Assembly (NCBI RefSeq): GCF_024223415.1
Contig: NZ_CP100500.1
Source: Escherichia coli
GTDB taxonomy: Bacteria; Pseudomonadota; Gammaproteobacteria; Enterobacterales; Enterobacteriaceae
DNA length: 64,000 bases
Direction: 5' to 3' (one strand)
Made by a program: the position numbers and the translations under genes. The first letter of the stretch is position 1. Every line of letters begins with the position of its first letter. The notes beneath the pieces were generated by a model. That model was not told the origin of the DNA. It was given only the letters and a program-made list of their open reading frames with translations, and did not search any database. Shown piece by piece: positions 58,133-64,000 of this stretch.

Positions 58133-58346
58133 TTCAATGAATTACCGTTAAATCATTTTAAAATCAGTAAGTTGTATCGAGTTTGTATGCTTTACTGTCA
58201 TTAACTTACTGTATGTTGATCCAGTGTATTTAACCTTGATAAACTCAGTCCAGCAACACAAAACCGCAACACATTGCATTTTGTCCCGTAGAAAAGACTT
58301 GTATGTGTGAGCTTGTTTTCTGCGCCTACGCAGATAAGGATTGAGA

Positions 58347-59744
58347 ATGCCGCGCACTGTAACACATAATCCGGATAGCCCCAATAATGACGATGTTTTA
58401 GCCGCTTCTGAAAAATGGGACGCCTGTAAACCCCCCTATACCAGCGCACACATGAAAATCTGTGTTGCTGCCGCCAAAATCATCCTCGCTGCTTCCGGCG
58501 TGGCTCGCCGTTCCAAATACGAAAAAGAGAACTATCTCCGTATCGATTTCAGCAAAGCCGGTAAGGTTACATTTTACGCCGAGTTTCCAAAAAAGATGGG
58601 CCTCAAAGGTAAAAAGCTCGGCGAGTGGCCGGAGCTCGCTATCCAGCTGGCGCGCGAAAAAGCACTAGGTATGGCTGACGGTGGACTGCGGGCAGAGTCC
58701 GTACATGCAGCGCTGGAAATGTACCGGGATGACCTCAAAGCCAAAGTAGCCCGTCAGAAGCTGAGCCCGGACAGTTTCACAACCTATGGGGTGCGTATCG
58801 ACCGGATTAAATCAACGTTCGGCGAGCGCGAGGTGTTCAGCGACGTAACATACAGTCGGCTGGTGGAAGTGCTGGACGAGTGGATCGCCACTCGCTCGAA
58901 CAATAACGCCCTGGAGTTGTTTGCCGAGCTCCGTCGGTTCTGGAAGTTCTGCGCACCTACTCTTTGCAACGGCCGCAATGTTGCCGCCAGTCTGCCAGAT
59001 GATTATGTTTCCTCCCGCGTACAGAAACCCACCCCCACACGGCTTTTTACCGATATTGAGTCAATCGCCCGGCTCTGGCTCAATGTTGCCGCCTGCACCT
59101 CTGTACACCAGAAGAATGCTGTTCGCTTCATGATCATCACCGGAGTTCGTCCGATTAATGTCCATAACCTGCGCTGGGACTACGTTCACGAGGAGGTTGG
59201 TGAAATTGTTTATCCGGAAGGGGTTATCGGCATGCGAGGGGCTATGAAAACACAAAAGGCTTTCCGCCTGCCGATAACGCCTGAGATCCGGCGGATTATC
59301 GACGAGCAGAAAGCCTGGCGTGATTCAGTTCCTGAGTGCAACAGGGATTATGTATTTTTGCAGCCACGTGATCCAATGCAGCCATTTTCAAAACGATCAC
59401 TGGATAAGCTGGTGAAAACATACAGCCCGGACGGGGCTGTAAAAGGAATAAAACATGATGGGACTGTTAAAGGGAAAGACGGTGCATTTAATACGATGTG
59501 CCGTAAATTCCTTAAGAGCAATGTTATTGCCTTGATGAAGGAAAGAGGCTATTCCCGATCAGACCGAAGGGAAATCAGCCTCCTTTGCCTTCACCACTCC
59601 AGCAAGTCAGATGACCCGATGGCAGAACATTACGACTTTTCTGATGAGATTTTACAGGAAGAGATTGCGTTAAAGCGCGAAGCTTTCGAGGCTCACGAGC
59701 GGAGCATACTTGCGCAGGTGGCATTGCTACGGCGGCGAGGTTAA
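58347..59744 (+). CDS. Tyrosine-type site-specific integrase (phage integrase family), 465 aa
   Basis: ATG 6 nt after AAGGA; C-terminal catalytic region with ...LHHSSKSD...HYDF and conserved Arg residues; the track ORF starts 2 codons earlier at TTG. Confidence 0.9.
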   Translation: MPRTVTHNPDSPNNDDVLAASEKWDACKPPYTSAHMKICVAAAKIILAASGVARRSKYEKENYLRIDFSKAGKVTFYAEFPKKMGLKGKKLGEWPELAIQLAREKALGMADGGLRAESVHAALEMYRDDLKAKVARQKLSPDSFTTYGVRIDRIKSTFGEREVFSDVTYSRLVEVLDEWIATRSNNNALELFAELRRFWKFCAPTLCNGRNVAASLPDDYVSSRVQKPTPTRLFTDIESIARLWLNVAACTSVHQKNAVRFMIITGVRPINVHNLRWDYVHEEVGEIVYPEGVIGMRGAMKTQKAFRLPITPEIRRIIDEQKAWRDSVPECNRDYVFLQPRDPMQPFSKRSLDKLVKTYSPDGAVKGIKHDGTVKGKDGAFNTMCRKFLKSNVIALMKERGYSRSDRREISLLCLHHSSKSDDPMAEHYDFSDEILQEEIALKREAFEAHERSILAQVALLRRRG

Positions 59745-59941
59745 TACCGGCTGCGACACTTTTGAATAAAAGCGTCGACATTGCGGCGCTCATAACGAAC
59801 TACTTTTGCACTGAAACGAATTGGTGCCAGGATAGCCCGATGACGATGCTTAATATTCCACTCACATAGCGTTTTCTGTGTAATACCTAACTTTTGGCAT
59901 ACTTCATCCGGGGTGAGTAAATCGTCGGGTTTCTCGCTCAT
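59741..59941 (-). CDS. Excisionase/AlpA-family HTH DNA-binding protein, 66 aa (MSEKPDDLLTPDEVCQKLGITQKTLCEWNIKH...)
   Basis: ATG at 59941 preceded by GAGAGG and overlapping the helicase stop (ATGA); the track ORF is extended 66 codons upstream through the helicase gene in another frame. Confidence 0.75.
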   Translation of the reverse strand: MSEKPDDLLTPDEVCQKLGITQKTLCEWNIKHRHRAILAPIRFSAKVVRYERRNVDAFIQKCRSRY

Positions 59942-61332
59942 GCTATACCTCTCTTTTTCATGGCATCGAGCAGGATGTCCTGCACTGTTCGTTTTGAGTT
60001 GCGCCGCTCTATCACCATTTCGTCCATAGTGTCGGCGGCGATAATGTGGTGAATGAACACCGGGCGGTTGTGTCCGGCCTGAATCTGCCGGGTTGGCCCG
60101 ATGCGTTCGATAATTTGTTGGTACTGCTCCAGATTCCACCAGTGCGAGAAAAACACCAGTATGTTTCCGCCGTCCTGCATGTTCAGGCCGTGGCCCGCGC
60201 TGGCTGGGTGTGCAAAGAGAACAGGAATCTTTCCGGAATTCCAGTCGCGCAGTGTCTGTGGATCCTGGTCGAGGTGACGACCGCGAGGGAATGCTTTAAG
60301 CAAGCGTTCAAGATCGTGTTTCCAGTGATAAGCAACCAGCACAGGTGCGCCAGCTGCTTCGGTCAGTATGCTGTCCAGCGCTTGTAGTTTGGTGTCATGC
60401 AGTTCTGACCAACTTCCGGTGTCGTCTGTGTATACTGCGCCACTGGCGATTTGCAGACATTTCAGTGTCTTTGCCGCGGCGTTCGGTGCTTCGATGCCTT
60501 CGCCATTCAGCTCGAGGAACATTTCCTTTTCCATTTCACGATACTGCTGACGGGCCTTCGGCGGCATATCCACGCGGATTACGTTATGGATGGGGTCTTT
60601 GATATCGAACCAGTCGGCCGCATCCAGCGAGAGGGTCACATCGGCTAATGCTCGCTGTATTTCACCCTGTGAGTGAGCAAAAGGCTCCAGTTTAGTCCAG
60701 CTCTGTCCCGGAAACTGTATCGAGTTGAACCAGCGTGAGGTAAACGCACCGTAAGTGCGCCCGAGACGTTGCCCCTGGTCCACAAACCACGATTGTCCCC
60801 ACAAATCTACCAGGCCGTTCGGTGCTGGCGTACCGGTGAGATTTATCCAGCGCCGGACATACTTATGCGCCACTTTGCCCAGCGCCGCTGCGCGCTTACC
60901 ACCACCTCGCAGCCGGAAGGATTTTAGCCGGGTGCTTTCATCCGGAATGACAGTAACGAACGGCCATCGTTCTCCCAATTCCTCAACCAGCCAGACAAGG
61001 TTATCGTAGTTGATGGTGAACACGCTTGCGTTGCTGTTCGCCAGCGCTGCAGAGCGCGCTTTGGCGTTACCAACAATCGGCTGCACCTCAATATTACGCA
61101 GATGCCCCCATTTCAGCGCTTCATCCGGCCATGTGTTTGCTGCAACACGTAGCGGCGCGAGGACCAGCGCGGGGCGTGTTTCTGCCCCTGCCATAAAGAG
61201 ATCTTCCAGCGTAGTGAGCGTTGCCACGGTTTTACCCATCCCCATCCCTGCCCAGATGTTGCCGCGCAGGGTTTCGGTTTCGTGGTTGATGATGAGGTCC
61301 TGGTAAGGGCGAGGCGTGAAAATTTGTCCCAT
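59938..61332 (-). CDS. SNF2/DEAD-like superfamily II helicase (phage replication/recombination)
   Basis: 464-aa ORF with Walker A (GMGMGKT), DExx (VIPDEST), TGTP and C-terminal helicase motifs (HPASAGHGLNMQ, QQIIERIGPTRQ). Confidence 0.85.
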   Translation of the reverse strand: MGQIFTPRPYQDLIINHETETLRGNIWAGMGMGKTVATLTTLEDLFMAGAETRPALVLAPLRVAANTWPDEALKWGHLRNIEVQPIVGNAKARSAALANSNASVFTINYDNLVWLVEELGERWPFVTVIPDESTRLKSFRLRGGGKRAAALGKVAHKYVRRWINLTGTPAPNGLVDLWGQSWFVDQGQRLGRTYGAFTSRWFNSIQFPGQSWTKLEPFAHSQGEIQRALADVTLSLDAADWFDIKDPIHNVIRVDMPPKARQQYREMEKEMFLELNGEGIEAPNAAAKTLKCLQIASGAVYTDDTGSWSELHDTKLQALDSILTEAAGAPVLVAYHWKHDLERLLKAFPRGRHLDQDPQTLRDWNSGKIPVLFAHPASAGHGLNMQDGGNILVFFSHWWNLEQYQQIIERIGPTRQIQAGHNRPVFIHHIIAADTMDEMVIERRNSKRTVQDILLDAMKKRGIA

Positions 61333-61376
61333 AGTATTTTAGCCAGTAGGGCGCGGGATAATCCCGCGCAAGAATG

Positions 61377-63188: not shown

Positions 63189-63399
63189 CGTCTGCCACCT
63201 TACGTTTTTCGCGTATGTTCTGCATCAGGCAAAAATCAGATCTGCGCTCACTCCATTCCTGATTGAGCGCGTTACGTGACTGGCGGTTGGCTTTGGCCCA
63301 GACCTTTGCTGCCCGATCGTACGCGCCGGACTGCTCAAGGCACAAAGCCTCCCGTGCAGTCTGGTAATAAAGTGGACTGTCCCGGTATTTAAATGACAT
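63178..63399 (-). CDS. Small phage protein of unknown function, 73 aa
   Basis: ATG-initiated ORF overlapping the VRR-NUC start by 11 nt, same strand. Confidence 0.55.
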   Translation of the reverse strand: MSFKYRDSPLYYQTAREALCLEQSGAYDRAAKVWAKANRQSRNALNQEWSERRSDFCLMQNIREKRKVADDGL

Positions 63400-63415
63400 A
63401 TATTTCGATTCCTGT

Positions 63416-63440
63416 AAAAAGCCCCTGACAGTGCAGGGGC
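63416..63440 (-). terminator. Intrinsic terminator-like hairpin inside the leftward phage operon
   Basis: Minus strand reads GCCCCTG-CACTGT-CAGGGGC followed by TTTTT, between the Bro-N gene stop (63455) and the next gene start (63399). Confidence 0.45.
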
Positions 63441-63454
63441 GGGATTGATTTGAA

Positions 63455-64000
63455 TTAACGAGGTAAGGCTGGTGGAATGTATTTGCCGATGCGGTCTTCT
63501 ATCGTTGGCAGAATACACATGCTGTCGTTAAAGCGATCGTGCAGTTTGTAGACCAGTTTCGAATCAGCCATTTCAAGCGCTGGCATTAACTGAGTCTGCC
63601 AGATTTCGTTGATGCGCCGGAAGTTATGACAGATCGCACGAAGATTATTAATGAACATTTCCTTCTCTGCGTCAGTGACTTCTGTTTGTGTTTTCTGAAT
63701 ACGCTTTGTGCTGCCGTTCCGGTAAAAGCGTTCCTGCGCAGCGACAGCCTCATCCACAGTCGGATAACAGCCAACGTATACGTTTTTCTCGCCGTCCCAT
63801 GCATAAGCCCGGTACGGATTGTATTTGCTCCGGTGATGGTAAATCATCTTCGGCAGACATTCCCTGTGCGGCGCCAGTATCGTGGAGGACTGCGGAACGG
63901 CGGTATCTTTCTCGATAAGGTCAAGCACCCAGCGACGAAATTCTTTGGCTACCGGAGTCGTTGCGAATATTGCTACCAGGTGGGCACCGCGCAGGGAGAA
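63455..64000 (-). CDS. Bro-N/AntA-type antirepressor-like protein with AP2-like C-terminal region (start lies beyond the window)
   Basis: The frame stays open past the track start to the window edge (...FATTPVAKEFRRWVLDLIEKDTAV... is a Bro-N-like motif); C-terminal YRAYAWDGEKNVYVGCYPTVDEAVAAQERF is AP2-like. Confidence 0.7.
   Translation of the reverse strand, partial: FSLRGAHLVAIFATTPVAKEFRRWVLDLIEKDTAVPQSSTILAPHRECLPKMIYHHRSKYNPYRAYAWDGEKNVYVGCYPTVDEAVAAQERFYRNGSTKRIQKTQTEVTDAEKEMFINNLRAICHNFRRINEIWQTQLMPALEMADSKLVYKLHDRFNDSMCILPTIEDRIGKYIPPALPR

Follow-up and report, generated by a model that had tools for sequence, protein, structure and literature searches.

An Escherichia coli stretch of 64,000 nt (contig NZ_CP100500.1, assembly GCF_024223415.1, hereafter the window) ends at the right in what we take, with a probability of about 0.9, to be the attL end of a temperate Caudoviricetes prophage that was integrated by its own integrase at a core sequence within yfhL. 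The element spans positions 58085-64000, and 5.9 kb of it are seen. Host genes acpS, ohsC/shoB and yfhL are followed by an intact 465-aa tyrosine integrase and then by phage early-region genes, the order already given in the initial annotation of this sequence. Its proposal of a phage-derived integrative element at a site other than a tRNA gene is supported by the existence of empty sites, the rarity of the element, and relatives that are full prophages with a core repeat. The insertion point was said to be neither a tRNA nor a tmRNA gene, and indeed positions 50000-64000 contain no gene of either type. The sole Rfam match, ohsC, is in the host flank, and the element has none. The GC content is 36-38% across yfhL and the junction (~57600-58400) and 44-58% inside the element.

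An insertion found in few E. coli genomes

In K-12, yfhH directly adjoins yfhL and no integrase lies beside the latter, in agreement with the K-12 layout given in the initial annotation. The same adjacency is found in near-isogenic O78 strains. One of them, O78 strain 3, has an empty site and the same yfhL allele, and its flanking sequence is 100% identical to that of the window over 9.2 kb. The integrase and its junction were identified in 159-160 of 5,426 complete E. coli genomes, always in the chromosome and once per genome. These results show that the element is an insertion. The contrary reading, in which the gene order is ancestral or an assembly artefact, is refuted: ~97% of the complete genomes lack the element, the exact empty site is present in a near-isogenic strain, and independent assemblies of 159 complete genomes, as well as many draft contigs, contain the junction.

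Among complete E. coli genomes, the best match covers 85% of the element at ~94-96% identity (the coverage is 88% for a query extended by 0.9 kb into the host flank). In a nucleotide search, none of 50,697 phage records exceeded a coverage of 28%, and the three matches to E. coli "phages" were prophage predictions that include host genes. We also looked up the exact integrase protein in a public contig collection to extend the element. The protein is indexed in 82 blocks, and the 23 contigs read all have it at the yfhL site. They provided no extension, since the closest one (L021) stops at the position matching 63445-63458 of the window.

The attachment core and the rebuilt yfhL

The features of the junction are the following.

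57872-58132, minus strand: yfhL, a hybrid gene with an intact 86-aa reading frame
58085-58102, plus strand: attL core TTCACACATATCACAATT, 18 bp, reverse complement of yfhL codons N11-C12-D13-M14-C15-E16
58103-58346, no strand: phage P' arm (surrogate yfhL codons 1-10, new yfhL upstream region, int upstream region)
58253-58274, plus strand: tandem GCAACACA / GCAACACAT repeats, 13 bp start to start, candidate arm-type integrase-binding sites
58303-58314, plus strand: conserved ATGTGTGAGCTT box upstream of int, kept in otherwise diverged spacers
58347-59744, plus strand: tyrosine integrase of the yfhL-targeting clade, 465 aa from ATG

Alignment to the insertion-free O78 strain 3 and K-12, the check that had been proposed for defining the att core, places the switch from host to phage DNA at 58085-58102. 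The insertion had been described as directly upstream of yfhL, with a boundary at 58133. Instead, the junction falls inside the 5' end of the gene, in codons 11-16, and phage DNA begins 30 bp inside the coding sequence. Codons 17-86 (57872-58084) are thus of host origin and codons 1-10 (58103-58132) are supplied by the phage. The core codons, NCDMCE, belong to the first Cys motif of the YfhL ferredoxin, and the core has a single match in the window when up to 2 mismatches are allowed.

The phage brings codons 1-10 together with upstream DNA, and hence the reading frame of yfhL is kept. The N-terminus encoded at empty sites is MALLITKKCI, from which lysogens differ by A2S and K8R only. An intact frame of 81-86 aa was found in all 11 lysogen loci examined, and the gene of lysogens is annotated in RefSeq as an intact YfhL. 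Both the exact core and the intact hybrid gene are thereby established. Because the yfhL of the window differs from that of K-12 throughout, we considered that the phage might have imported a foreign copy. We rejected this idea since the empty-site O78 strains have the same allele (99.8% identity).

The P' arm has no similarity to the yfhH-yfhL spacer of K-12. Relative to the yfhL ATG, its tandem repeats are at +123/+136 in E. coli, Yersinia, Morganella, and Serratia, and at +133/+146 in Veronia. The motif AACACA occurs six times in the 422-bp reconstructed attP, for 0.27 expected, and none of 5000 shuffles reached six. These repeats, present on both attP arms, are likely arm-type integrase sites, judging from their number and placement. 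The ATGTGTGAGCTT box is found in E. coli, Yersinia, Serratia, and Veronia, and is possibly a further integrase site or a promoter element. A simple sigma-70 scan of the phage-supplied upstream DNA revealed no convincing yfhL promoter.

The integrase

The comparison with phage integrase families, another check that had been suggested, gave matches to PHROG_1 (E 8.6e-26) and to PF00589 (E 1.7e-6), the latter partial (it covers positions 14-117 of the 172 in the model). Residues 58-107 give a weak Arm-DNA-bind_3 signal. No NCBIfam model exists for the protein, and a sequence search of the PDB returned nothing meaningful. Among the putative catalytic residues (R-K-H-R-H/W-Y), an alignment of 10 sequences with 34-100% identity has R268, K301, R386, and H417 in every sequence and Y429 in nearly all. 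The usual position of the His in the HxxR motif, three residues before R386, appears to be occupied across the clade by an invariant Thr383, the active site being assigned here by spacing rather than by structural superposition. The AlphaFold model (mean pLDDT 80.8) has as best Foldseek matches the full-length lambda Int (1z1b, E 8.7e-8), XerA, the Tn1549 Int, and Cre, all with probability 1.00.

The resemblance to lambda extends to the repeated motifs on both attP arms and to the adjacent small excisionase-like gene. However, the structure-based sequence identity to lambda Int is ~13%, a Thr appears to replace the HxxR His, the integrase gene is transcribed away from the att site with the putative xis convergent on it, and the core lies in a protein-coding gene. 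The orientation of the integrase, pointing away from the junction, was correctly described in the initial annotation, but it is not an oddity since it is the constant layout of this family. In E. coli, Yersinia, Morganella, Klebsiella, and Serratia, 214-215 bp separate the start of the gene from the yfhL ATG.

Other genes of the visible element

The genes previously listed after the integrase are all present. The HTH_17, SNF2, Rha-like, two Arc/RHH, and VRR-NUC genes are intact, and the BRO-N gene is represented by its 3' part, cut by the end of the window.

59741-59941, minus strand: HTH_17 (AlpA/Xis-like) protein, 66 aa, convergent with int, whose last 4 bp it overlaps
59938-61332, minus strand: SNF2-family helicase, 464 aa (PHROG_62, E 1.2e-156), first gene of the replication/recombination module
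61377-62099, minus strand: Rha/Ant-like regulator, 240 aa (PHROG_63 Ant, E 2.5e-21; Pfam Phage_pRha at just E 0.087)
62159-62335, minus strand: small hypothetical gene, 58 aa in RefSeq relatives, reading frame open to 62416, no family match in profile searches
62449-62763, plus strand: Arc/RHH-family DNA-binding protein, 104 aa (precomputed PF03869 on the L021 homologue)
62782-62922, minus strand: Arc/RHH-family DNA-binding protein, 46 aa (family match)
62919-63188, minus strand: VRR-NUC / PD-(D/E)XK nuclease, 89 aa (PF08774, E 9e-4; PHROG_93, E 8e-32)
63178-63399, minus strand: ANR-family (AraC negative regulator) small protein, 73 aa (NF033650, E 1.9e-18, 66 bits for a cut-off of 32)
63455-64000, minus strand: BRO-N/Ant antirepressor gene, 3' 181 codons of ~254 aa, frame without stop that runs off the window

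The HTH_17 gene matches PF12728 (E 5.8e-5), PHROG_4745 (E 4e-27), and two excisionase PHROGs (E 1e-5 and 7e-5). The int gene is likewise followed by a similar small gene in Yersinia, Morganella, Oceanimonas, and the Serratia phage OS31, where it is annotated as an excisionase. Family matches and position suggest that it is probably the excisionase (recombination directionality factor) of the element. The ANR-family gene was absent from the earlier gene list. The last reading frame is 89% identical in a pairwise comparison to residues 98-254 of a 254-aa RefSeq "BRO-N domain-containing protein", which means that just the tail of the BRO-N domain is visible. Pfam gave no match for this frame, as the domain lies mostly beyond the window. 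PADLOC identified no defence system in the visible part, which does not qualify as a defence island: generic SNF2 similarity was the only signal (DpdE/ZorD, partial, E 1e-13 or weaker), and the other 7 proteins had no match.

Relatives at the same site

The E. coli relatives at yfhL are mosaic prophages of 38-49 kb that have a common left arm and are flanked by the core repeat. The core recurs at attR 38,203 bp away in VL7S7 and 48,790 bp away in STEC1590, and with one mismatch 46,438 bp away in CFIAFB20190157. In four relatives (L003, L005, L006, and L022) the far-end repeat is beside the native yfhL 5' stub and yfhH. The relatives carry terminase, portal, capsid, tail, and lysis genes as well as CI/Cro/Q, and their early module continues with PolA, DUF2815, DUF2800, CI/Cro, and primase. 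Given the empty sites in K-12 and O78, the rarity of the element, and these full prophages bounded by the core repeat, neither of the two contrary outcomes named in the initial annotation holds. The gene order is not that of all E. coli, relatives have the flanking repeat, and the integrase is intact, with further phage genes to the right in relatives.

The same integrase clade is associated with non-phage-looking cargo in Veronia (KAP NTPase and Toprim primase), Oceanimonas (Rep3), and Thalassotalea (a Replic_Relax-like gene), which would fit a phage satellite or a genomic island that borrowed the yfhL-specific integrase module. We regard this as very improbable for the element of the window, because its int-xis-SNF2 block is 96-98.5% identical in nucleotide sequence to that of full prophages and its VRR-NUC, ANR, and BRO-N genes match the same prophages at 85-94%. 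Furthermore, PolA/DUF2815/DUF2800 come next in every E. coli relative inspected, and CI/Cro are reached in the four that were traced beyond this point (L001, L003, L005, and L006).

A decayed prophage, integrated as described and having since lost part of its genome here by deletions or IS, so that it makes no particles, is a less remote alternative, which we nevertheless hold to be unlikely. Some relatives are indeed damaged: the 38-kb copy of VL7S7 is riddled with IS elements and has pseudogenised tail genes, and STEC1590, whose portal gene is frameshifted, failed to be induced (PMC12029490). The sequence right of 64000 is also outside our view. However, no reading frame is broken in the 5.9 kb seen, many public contigs encode an identical integrase protein, and CFIAFB20190157, with the same left arm, has an apparently complete prophage of 46.4 kb. 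A complete prophage would be expected to the right of the window in this genome.

The use of yfhL as an integration site is already in the literature: the reports on E. coli date from 2013 and 2023, and the one on Serratia phage OS31 from 2020. Bobay et al. 2013 (PMC3603311) listed it among E. coli prophage sites, as "disrupted", whereas the reading frame is rebuilt in the window. More recently it was reported as a new Stx insertion site (PMC10675304, PMC12029490). The E. coli yfhL prophages, including the Stx2b ones (STEC1590, STEC1586, and CFIAFB20190157), share with the window the core, the hybrid yfhL, the left arm, and the order of early genes. The copy in the window is nonetheless its own mosaic. 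The N-terminal winged-helix half of its Rha-like protein (~61747-62099) is unique among the relatives examined, a DUF4406 gene is absent, and BRO-N directly follows ANR. At the yfhL site, stx2b is present in STEC1590 and CFIAFB20190157 and absent from VL7S7 and from relatives of the vB_EcoM-611R5 type. One relative carries ipaH.

An integrase clade associated with yfhL

Beyond E. coli, the integrase adjoins and diverges from a yfhL-type 2x[4Fe-4S] ferredoxin gene in 10 out of 10 sampled homologues from other lineages (34-68% identity). Integrases divergent from a small Fer4 gene were found in Yersinia, Morganella, Klebsiella, Shewanella, Thalassotalea, Pseudoalteromonas, Oceanimonas, Veronia, and one metagenome contig. 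The pairing holds whatever the other neighbours are, and demonstrates a family-wide linkage between integrase and yfhL.

A published case is Serratia phage vB_SspS_OS31 (MT843276), which is mitomycin-C inducible and for which Bujak et al. 2020 (PMC7556043) gave an att repeat of 23 bp. Its Int is 76% identical over the full length to that of the window, the gene is 215 bp from a surrogate yfhL start, and it has the same tandem AACACA motifs and an excisionase-like HTH beside int. The att repeat falls in the same ferredoxin codons as the E. coli core, and the two cores (TCGCACATGTCGCAGTT in OS31, TTCACACATATCACAATT in E. coli) differ at synonymous positions. In contrast, OS31 infects another genus and has an HK97/lambda-like backbone with DEAD helicase and primase as replication genes. 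Both in the window and in OS31, the crossover core lies within yfhL codons ~9-16, with the 5' end of the gene replaced by element DNA.

This recalls the DusA-associated integrases, which Farrugia et al. 2015 (PMC4482086) describe as a dedicated clade of tyrosine integrases whose target is a single conserved segment within the 5' end of a housekeeping gene. Their elements have highly variable cargo and may restore the 5' end of the target. The logic is the same and the target gene differs. On balance, we favour the view that a clade of integrases spread across Gammaproteobacteria, apparently neither named nor described as such, is dedicated to the 5' end of yfhL in an analogous way. The attP of its elements would always carry a surrogate yfhL start and new upstream DNA, so that lysogeny swaps the 5' region while keeping the reading frame. 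The int-attP cassette would have been shuffled onto Stx2b siphoviruses, ipaH-carrying prophages of the myovirus type, and satellite- or plasmid-like marine islands.

A proposed model of integration at yfhL

In the model that we propose, the lambda-type tyrosine integrase of the phage would catalyse site-specific recombination at the 18-bp core. Since attP carries look-alike yfhL codons 1-10 and upstream DNA beside the core, integration rebuilds an intact yfhL with only the A2S and K8R changes, and the native first 10 codons would persist as a stub next to yfhH, on the far side of the prophage. The AACACA motifs of both arms would likely serve as arm-type sites, and the convergent HTH_17 gene would likely provide the excisionase. 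Downstream, a conserved leftward early/replication module starts with the SNF2 helicase and includes a variable accessory slot, occupied here by the Rha-like gene, the two Arc genes, VRR-NUC, ANR, and BRO-N. In lysogens, yfhL would be expressed from phage DNA, and it is a possibility that the phage-supplied upstream region rewires this expression.

The main value of these results is for annotation. The element adds to a documented kind of E. coli prophage at yfhL, a gene that is shown here to be rebuilt rather than disrupted. With the att core fixed, a simple string search is enough to locate the other end of the prophage. Since Stx2b or ipaH can be present in elements at this site, the full genome deserves a check for them. 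The family-wide pairing of this integrase clade with yfhL raises no new question, and neatly illustrates how an integrase specific for one gene can leave that gene preserved.

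An inserted prophage end at yfhL

The right end of the window carries an inserted, phage-derived element, as the initial annotation had proposed. The 9.2 kb of flanking DNA are 100% identical to several O78-type E. coli genomes, and yfhH directly adjoins yfhL in K-12 and in O78 strain 3, where the site is empty. Of 5,426 complete E. coli genomes, 159 have the junction together with the integrase, always as one copy per genome and always in the chromosome, and 160 have the element body. At most 85% of the window's element is covered by any complete genome (88% when 0.9 kb of host flank is added to the query). 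A draft contig encoding the exact integrase protein at the same locus aligns to about 5.2 kb within window 57872-63445 (97.5-98.4% identity) and then stops; the portion left unmatched is the N-terminal half of the Rha-like gene (61747-62102).

The host order era-recO-pdxJ-acpS ends at 57176; beyond it lie the ohsC/shoB type I toxin-antitoxin locus and then yfhL. All genes named in the initial annotation were recovered.

Features at the right end of the window
57198-57274, ohsC (Rfam, 103 bits)
57872-58132, minus strand, yfhL, intact 86-aa ORF
58347-59744, plus strand, integrase, 465 aa
59741-59941, minus strand, HTH_17 protein, 66 aa
59938-61332, minus strand, SNF2 helicase
61377-62099, minus strand, Rha/Ant-like regulator
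between the Rha/Ant-like regulator and the first Arc/RHH gene, small ORF
62449-62763, plus strand, Arc/RHH gene 1
62782-62922, minus strand, Arc/RHH gene 2
62919-63188, minus strand, VRR-NUC nuclease
63178-63399, minus strand, small protein of the ANR (AraC negative regulator) family (NF033650, 66 bits against a cut-off of 32)
63455-64000, minus strand, BRO-N antirepressor, open frame leaving the window, 89% identical to residues 98-254 of a 254-aa protein

There are no tRNA or tmRNA genes near the junction, and the visible part of the element has no defence system according to PADLOC and no RNA family according to Rfam. Homologues of the ANR-family gene occur in most relatives at the yfhL site, and the gene is part of the prophage early region.

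Across the host stretch from ohsC/shoB to yfhL (57180-58110), identity to most E. coli is only 90-96%, and this allele is found at 99% identity or more in only 6 genomes. The adjoining 9 kb, by comparison, reach 95% or more against all genomes and 99% or more against about 1,700. A phage origin of the divergent yfhL allele is excluded, since empty-site O78 strains carry the same one. In O78 strain 3, the closest empty-site relative, an IS1 lies between shoB and yfhL (9671-10368 of its locus); the window has no IS at this place.

The junction lies inside the yfhL coding sequence

To map the junction, we used O78 strain 3, whose site is empty and whose yfhL allele is the same at 99.8% identity, and aligned it with the window. 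The identity runs to ...GGTTCACACATATCACAATT, with divergence beyond. The far end of the prophage in strain VL7S7 is the converse, with phage DNA up to TTCACACATATCACAATT and native yfhL/yfhH sequence after it. Together, the two switches define the shared core as the 18-mer at 58085-58102, which is unique in the window even when two mismatches are allowed. To the right of the window, the far end (attR) would be expected to show TTCACACATATCACAATT, then GATGCATTTTTTAGTGATTAACA(A/G)CGCCAT, then yfhH, and the element to span about 38-50 kb.

On the complementary strand, the core spells yfhL codons 11-16 (N-C-D-M-C-E), which belong to the ferredoxin's first cysteine motif. The next 30 bp (58103-58132) are phage DNA encoding replacement codons 1-10, whose native counterpart reads MALLITKKCI. 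Because the phage supplies these codons, yfhL keeps an intact reading frame of 86 aa in the window; it is also intact in all lysogen loci examined, and RefSeq annotates it likewise. The element had initially been placed directly upstream of yfhL: the insertion is indeed at this gene, but the empty-site alignment puts it within the first 16 codons, with the start re-supplied by the phage.

Integration very probably follows the lambda scheme, in which attP recombines with the yfhL core; the HTH_17 protein is the probable directionality factor. As the core lies in a functionally constrained coding stretch, the phage target would be conserved across hosts, and the phage-borne substitute 5' end would spare yfhL from inactivation. 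A simple scan of the phage arm revealed no yfhL promoter.

The integrase and its association with yfhL

Comparison with phage integrase families bears out the identity of the integrase: it hits PHROG_1 (E 8.6e-26) and, over part of the profile, PF00589. NCBIfam offers no model for it, and no PDB entry is related to it in sequence. Its AlphaFold model has a mean pLDDT of 80.8, and the top structural match is full-length lambda Int. In a 10-sequence alignment, R268, K301, R386, and H417 are invariant and Y429 is nearly so. The position expected to hold the histidine of the HxxR motif is an invariant threonine, T383 (window ~59493-59495), in 10/10 aligned clade members.

Homologues of the integrase are spread over Gammaproteobacteria (92 clusters). 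We inspected the gene neighbourhoods of ten of them, all outside this lineage and 34-68% identical, in Yersinia, Morganella, Klebsiella, Veronia, Shewanella, Thalassotalea, Pseudoalteromonas, Oceanimonas, and one metagenome contig. In all ten, the integrase gene is oriented divergently to a Fer4 gene of 81-86 aa, whose product begins MALLI..CINCDMC, and the pairing is kept even where the other surrounding genes bear no relation to those in E. coli. The cargo consists of phage genes in enterobacteria, and of primase/KAP-NTPase, Rep3 or relaxase-like genes in marine taxa.

The spacers between yfhL and the integrase have diverged apart from AACACA motifs and a ATGTGTGAGCTT box. In the window, tandem GCAACACA motifs (58253-58274) are followed by the ATGTGTGAGCTT box (58303-58314), and the spacing of both from the start of yfhL is conserved between genera (loci L007, L009, L014, and L015). 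Counted from the yfhL ATG, the tandem (A)G(C/T/G)AACACA pair is at +123/+136 in E. coli, Yersinia, Morganella, and Serratia; in Veronia, its position is +133/+146. AACACA occurs six times across both arms of a 422-bp attP, reconstructed from strain CFIAFB20190157, where ~0.27 occurrences are expected and none of 5000 shuffles reaches six. These motifs are likely arm-type sites, at which Int would bind, and this reading fits the weak Arm-DNA-bind_3 signal in the integrase.

Whole prophages and mosaicism

Prophages in relatives could be followed from core to core.

Prophages at the yfhL site in other strains
CFIAFB20190157, 46,438 bp, siphovirus-type prophage that appears complete, carrying stx2b and tRNA-Arg along with CI/Cro, primase, Q, lysis, terminase, portal, and lambda-like tail genes
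STEC1590, 48,790 bp, Stx2b prophage, portal gene frameshifted
VL7S7, 38,203 bp, IS-riddled, baseplate genes of myovirus type, ipaH effector gene beside attR

In the CFIAFB20190157 locus (L006), the attR core (46719-46736) is one base off attL (TTCACACATATCTCAATT). In VL7S7 (NZ_CM177009.1), the gene adjoining attR (35751-37577), ipaH, encodes a type III secretion effector E3 ligase; this prophage has copies of IS1, IS2, and IS600, and pseudogenised tail genes.

The yfhL-site prophage family is mosaic. The int-xis-SNF2 segment of the relatives is 96-98.5% identical to the window, and a variable swap-in slot lies between the SNF2 helicase and the VRR-NUC nuclease (window 61333-62918, compared with relatives L016, L017, and vB_EcoM-611R5). 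In the window, the slot holds the Rha-like and two Arc genes; L016 has a C5 DNA methylase there, and other relatives have an unnamed ORF of 217 to 236 aa (236 aa in L017). A TIR-like protein is encoded just past the nuclease in vB_EcoM-611R5, and late regions likewise vary among relatives.

Three GenBank "phage" records, vB_EcoM-611R5 (ON470588.1), ON470582, and ON470579, are prophage predictions from the yfhL locus, although deposited as complete phage genomes. They match the window only from the helicase gene on, which is at one end of each record. ON470588.1, the only one of the three viewed whole, starts in the helicase gene, lacks int and xis, and passes attR into host yfhH, pgpC, and tadA (40383-42739). 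It looks like a mis-bounded prophage prediction and not a virion genome.

Relation to known elements

The gene yfhL was already an E. coli prophage site, counted among "disrupted" genes (Bobay et al. 2013, PMC3603311), and was reported in 2023 as a new insertion site of Stx2b prophages (PMC10675304; also PMC12029490). Among 50,697 phage records, the integrase is found in one, the inducible Serratia phage vB_SspS_OS31 (76% identity), which has a 23-bp flanking repeat within a 2x[4Fe-4S] ferredoxin gene (PMC7556043). This repeat spans the same yfhL codons as the E. coli core, and the first 47 bp of the phage record hold a surrogate yfhL start. In logic, the yfhL integrases resemble the DusA-associated integrases (PMC4482086).

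The rebuilding of yfhL, the conserved arm motifs, and the breadth of the integrase-yfhL linkage were not found in PMC3603311, PMC10675304, PMC12029490, PMC7556043, and PMC4482086. They are refinements of a known kind of element rather than a new kind. What the window shows is the end of an ordinary prophage; its integration site is documented, and its junction is now precisely placed.
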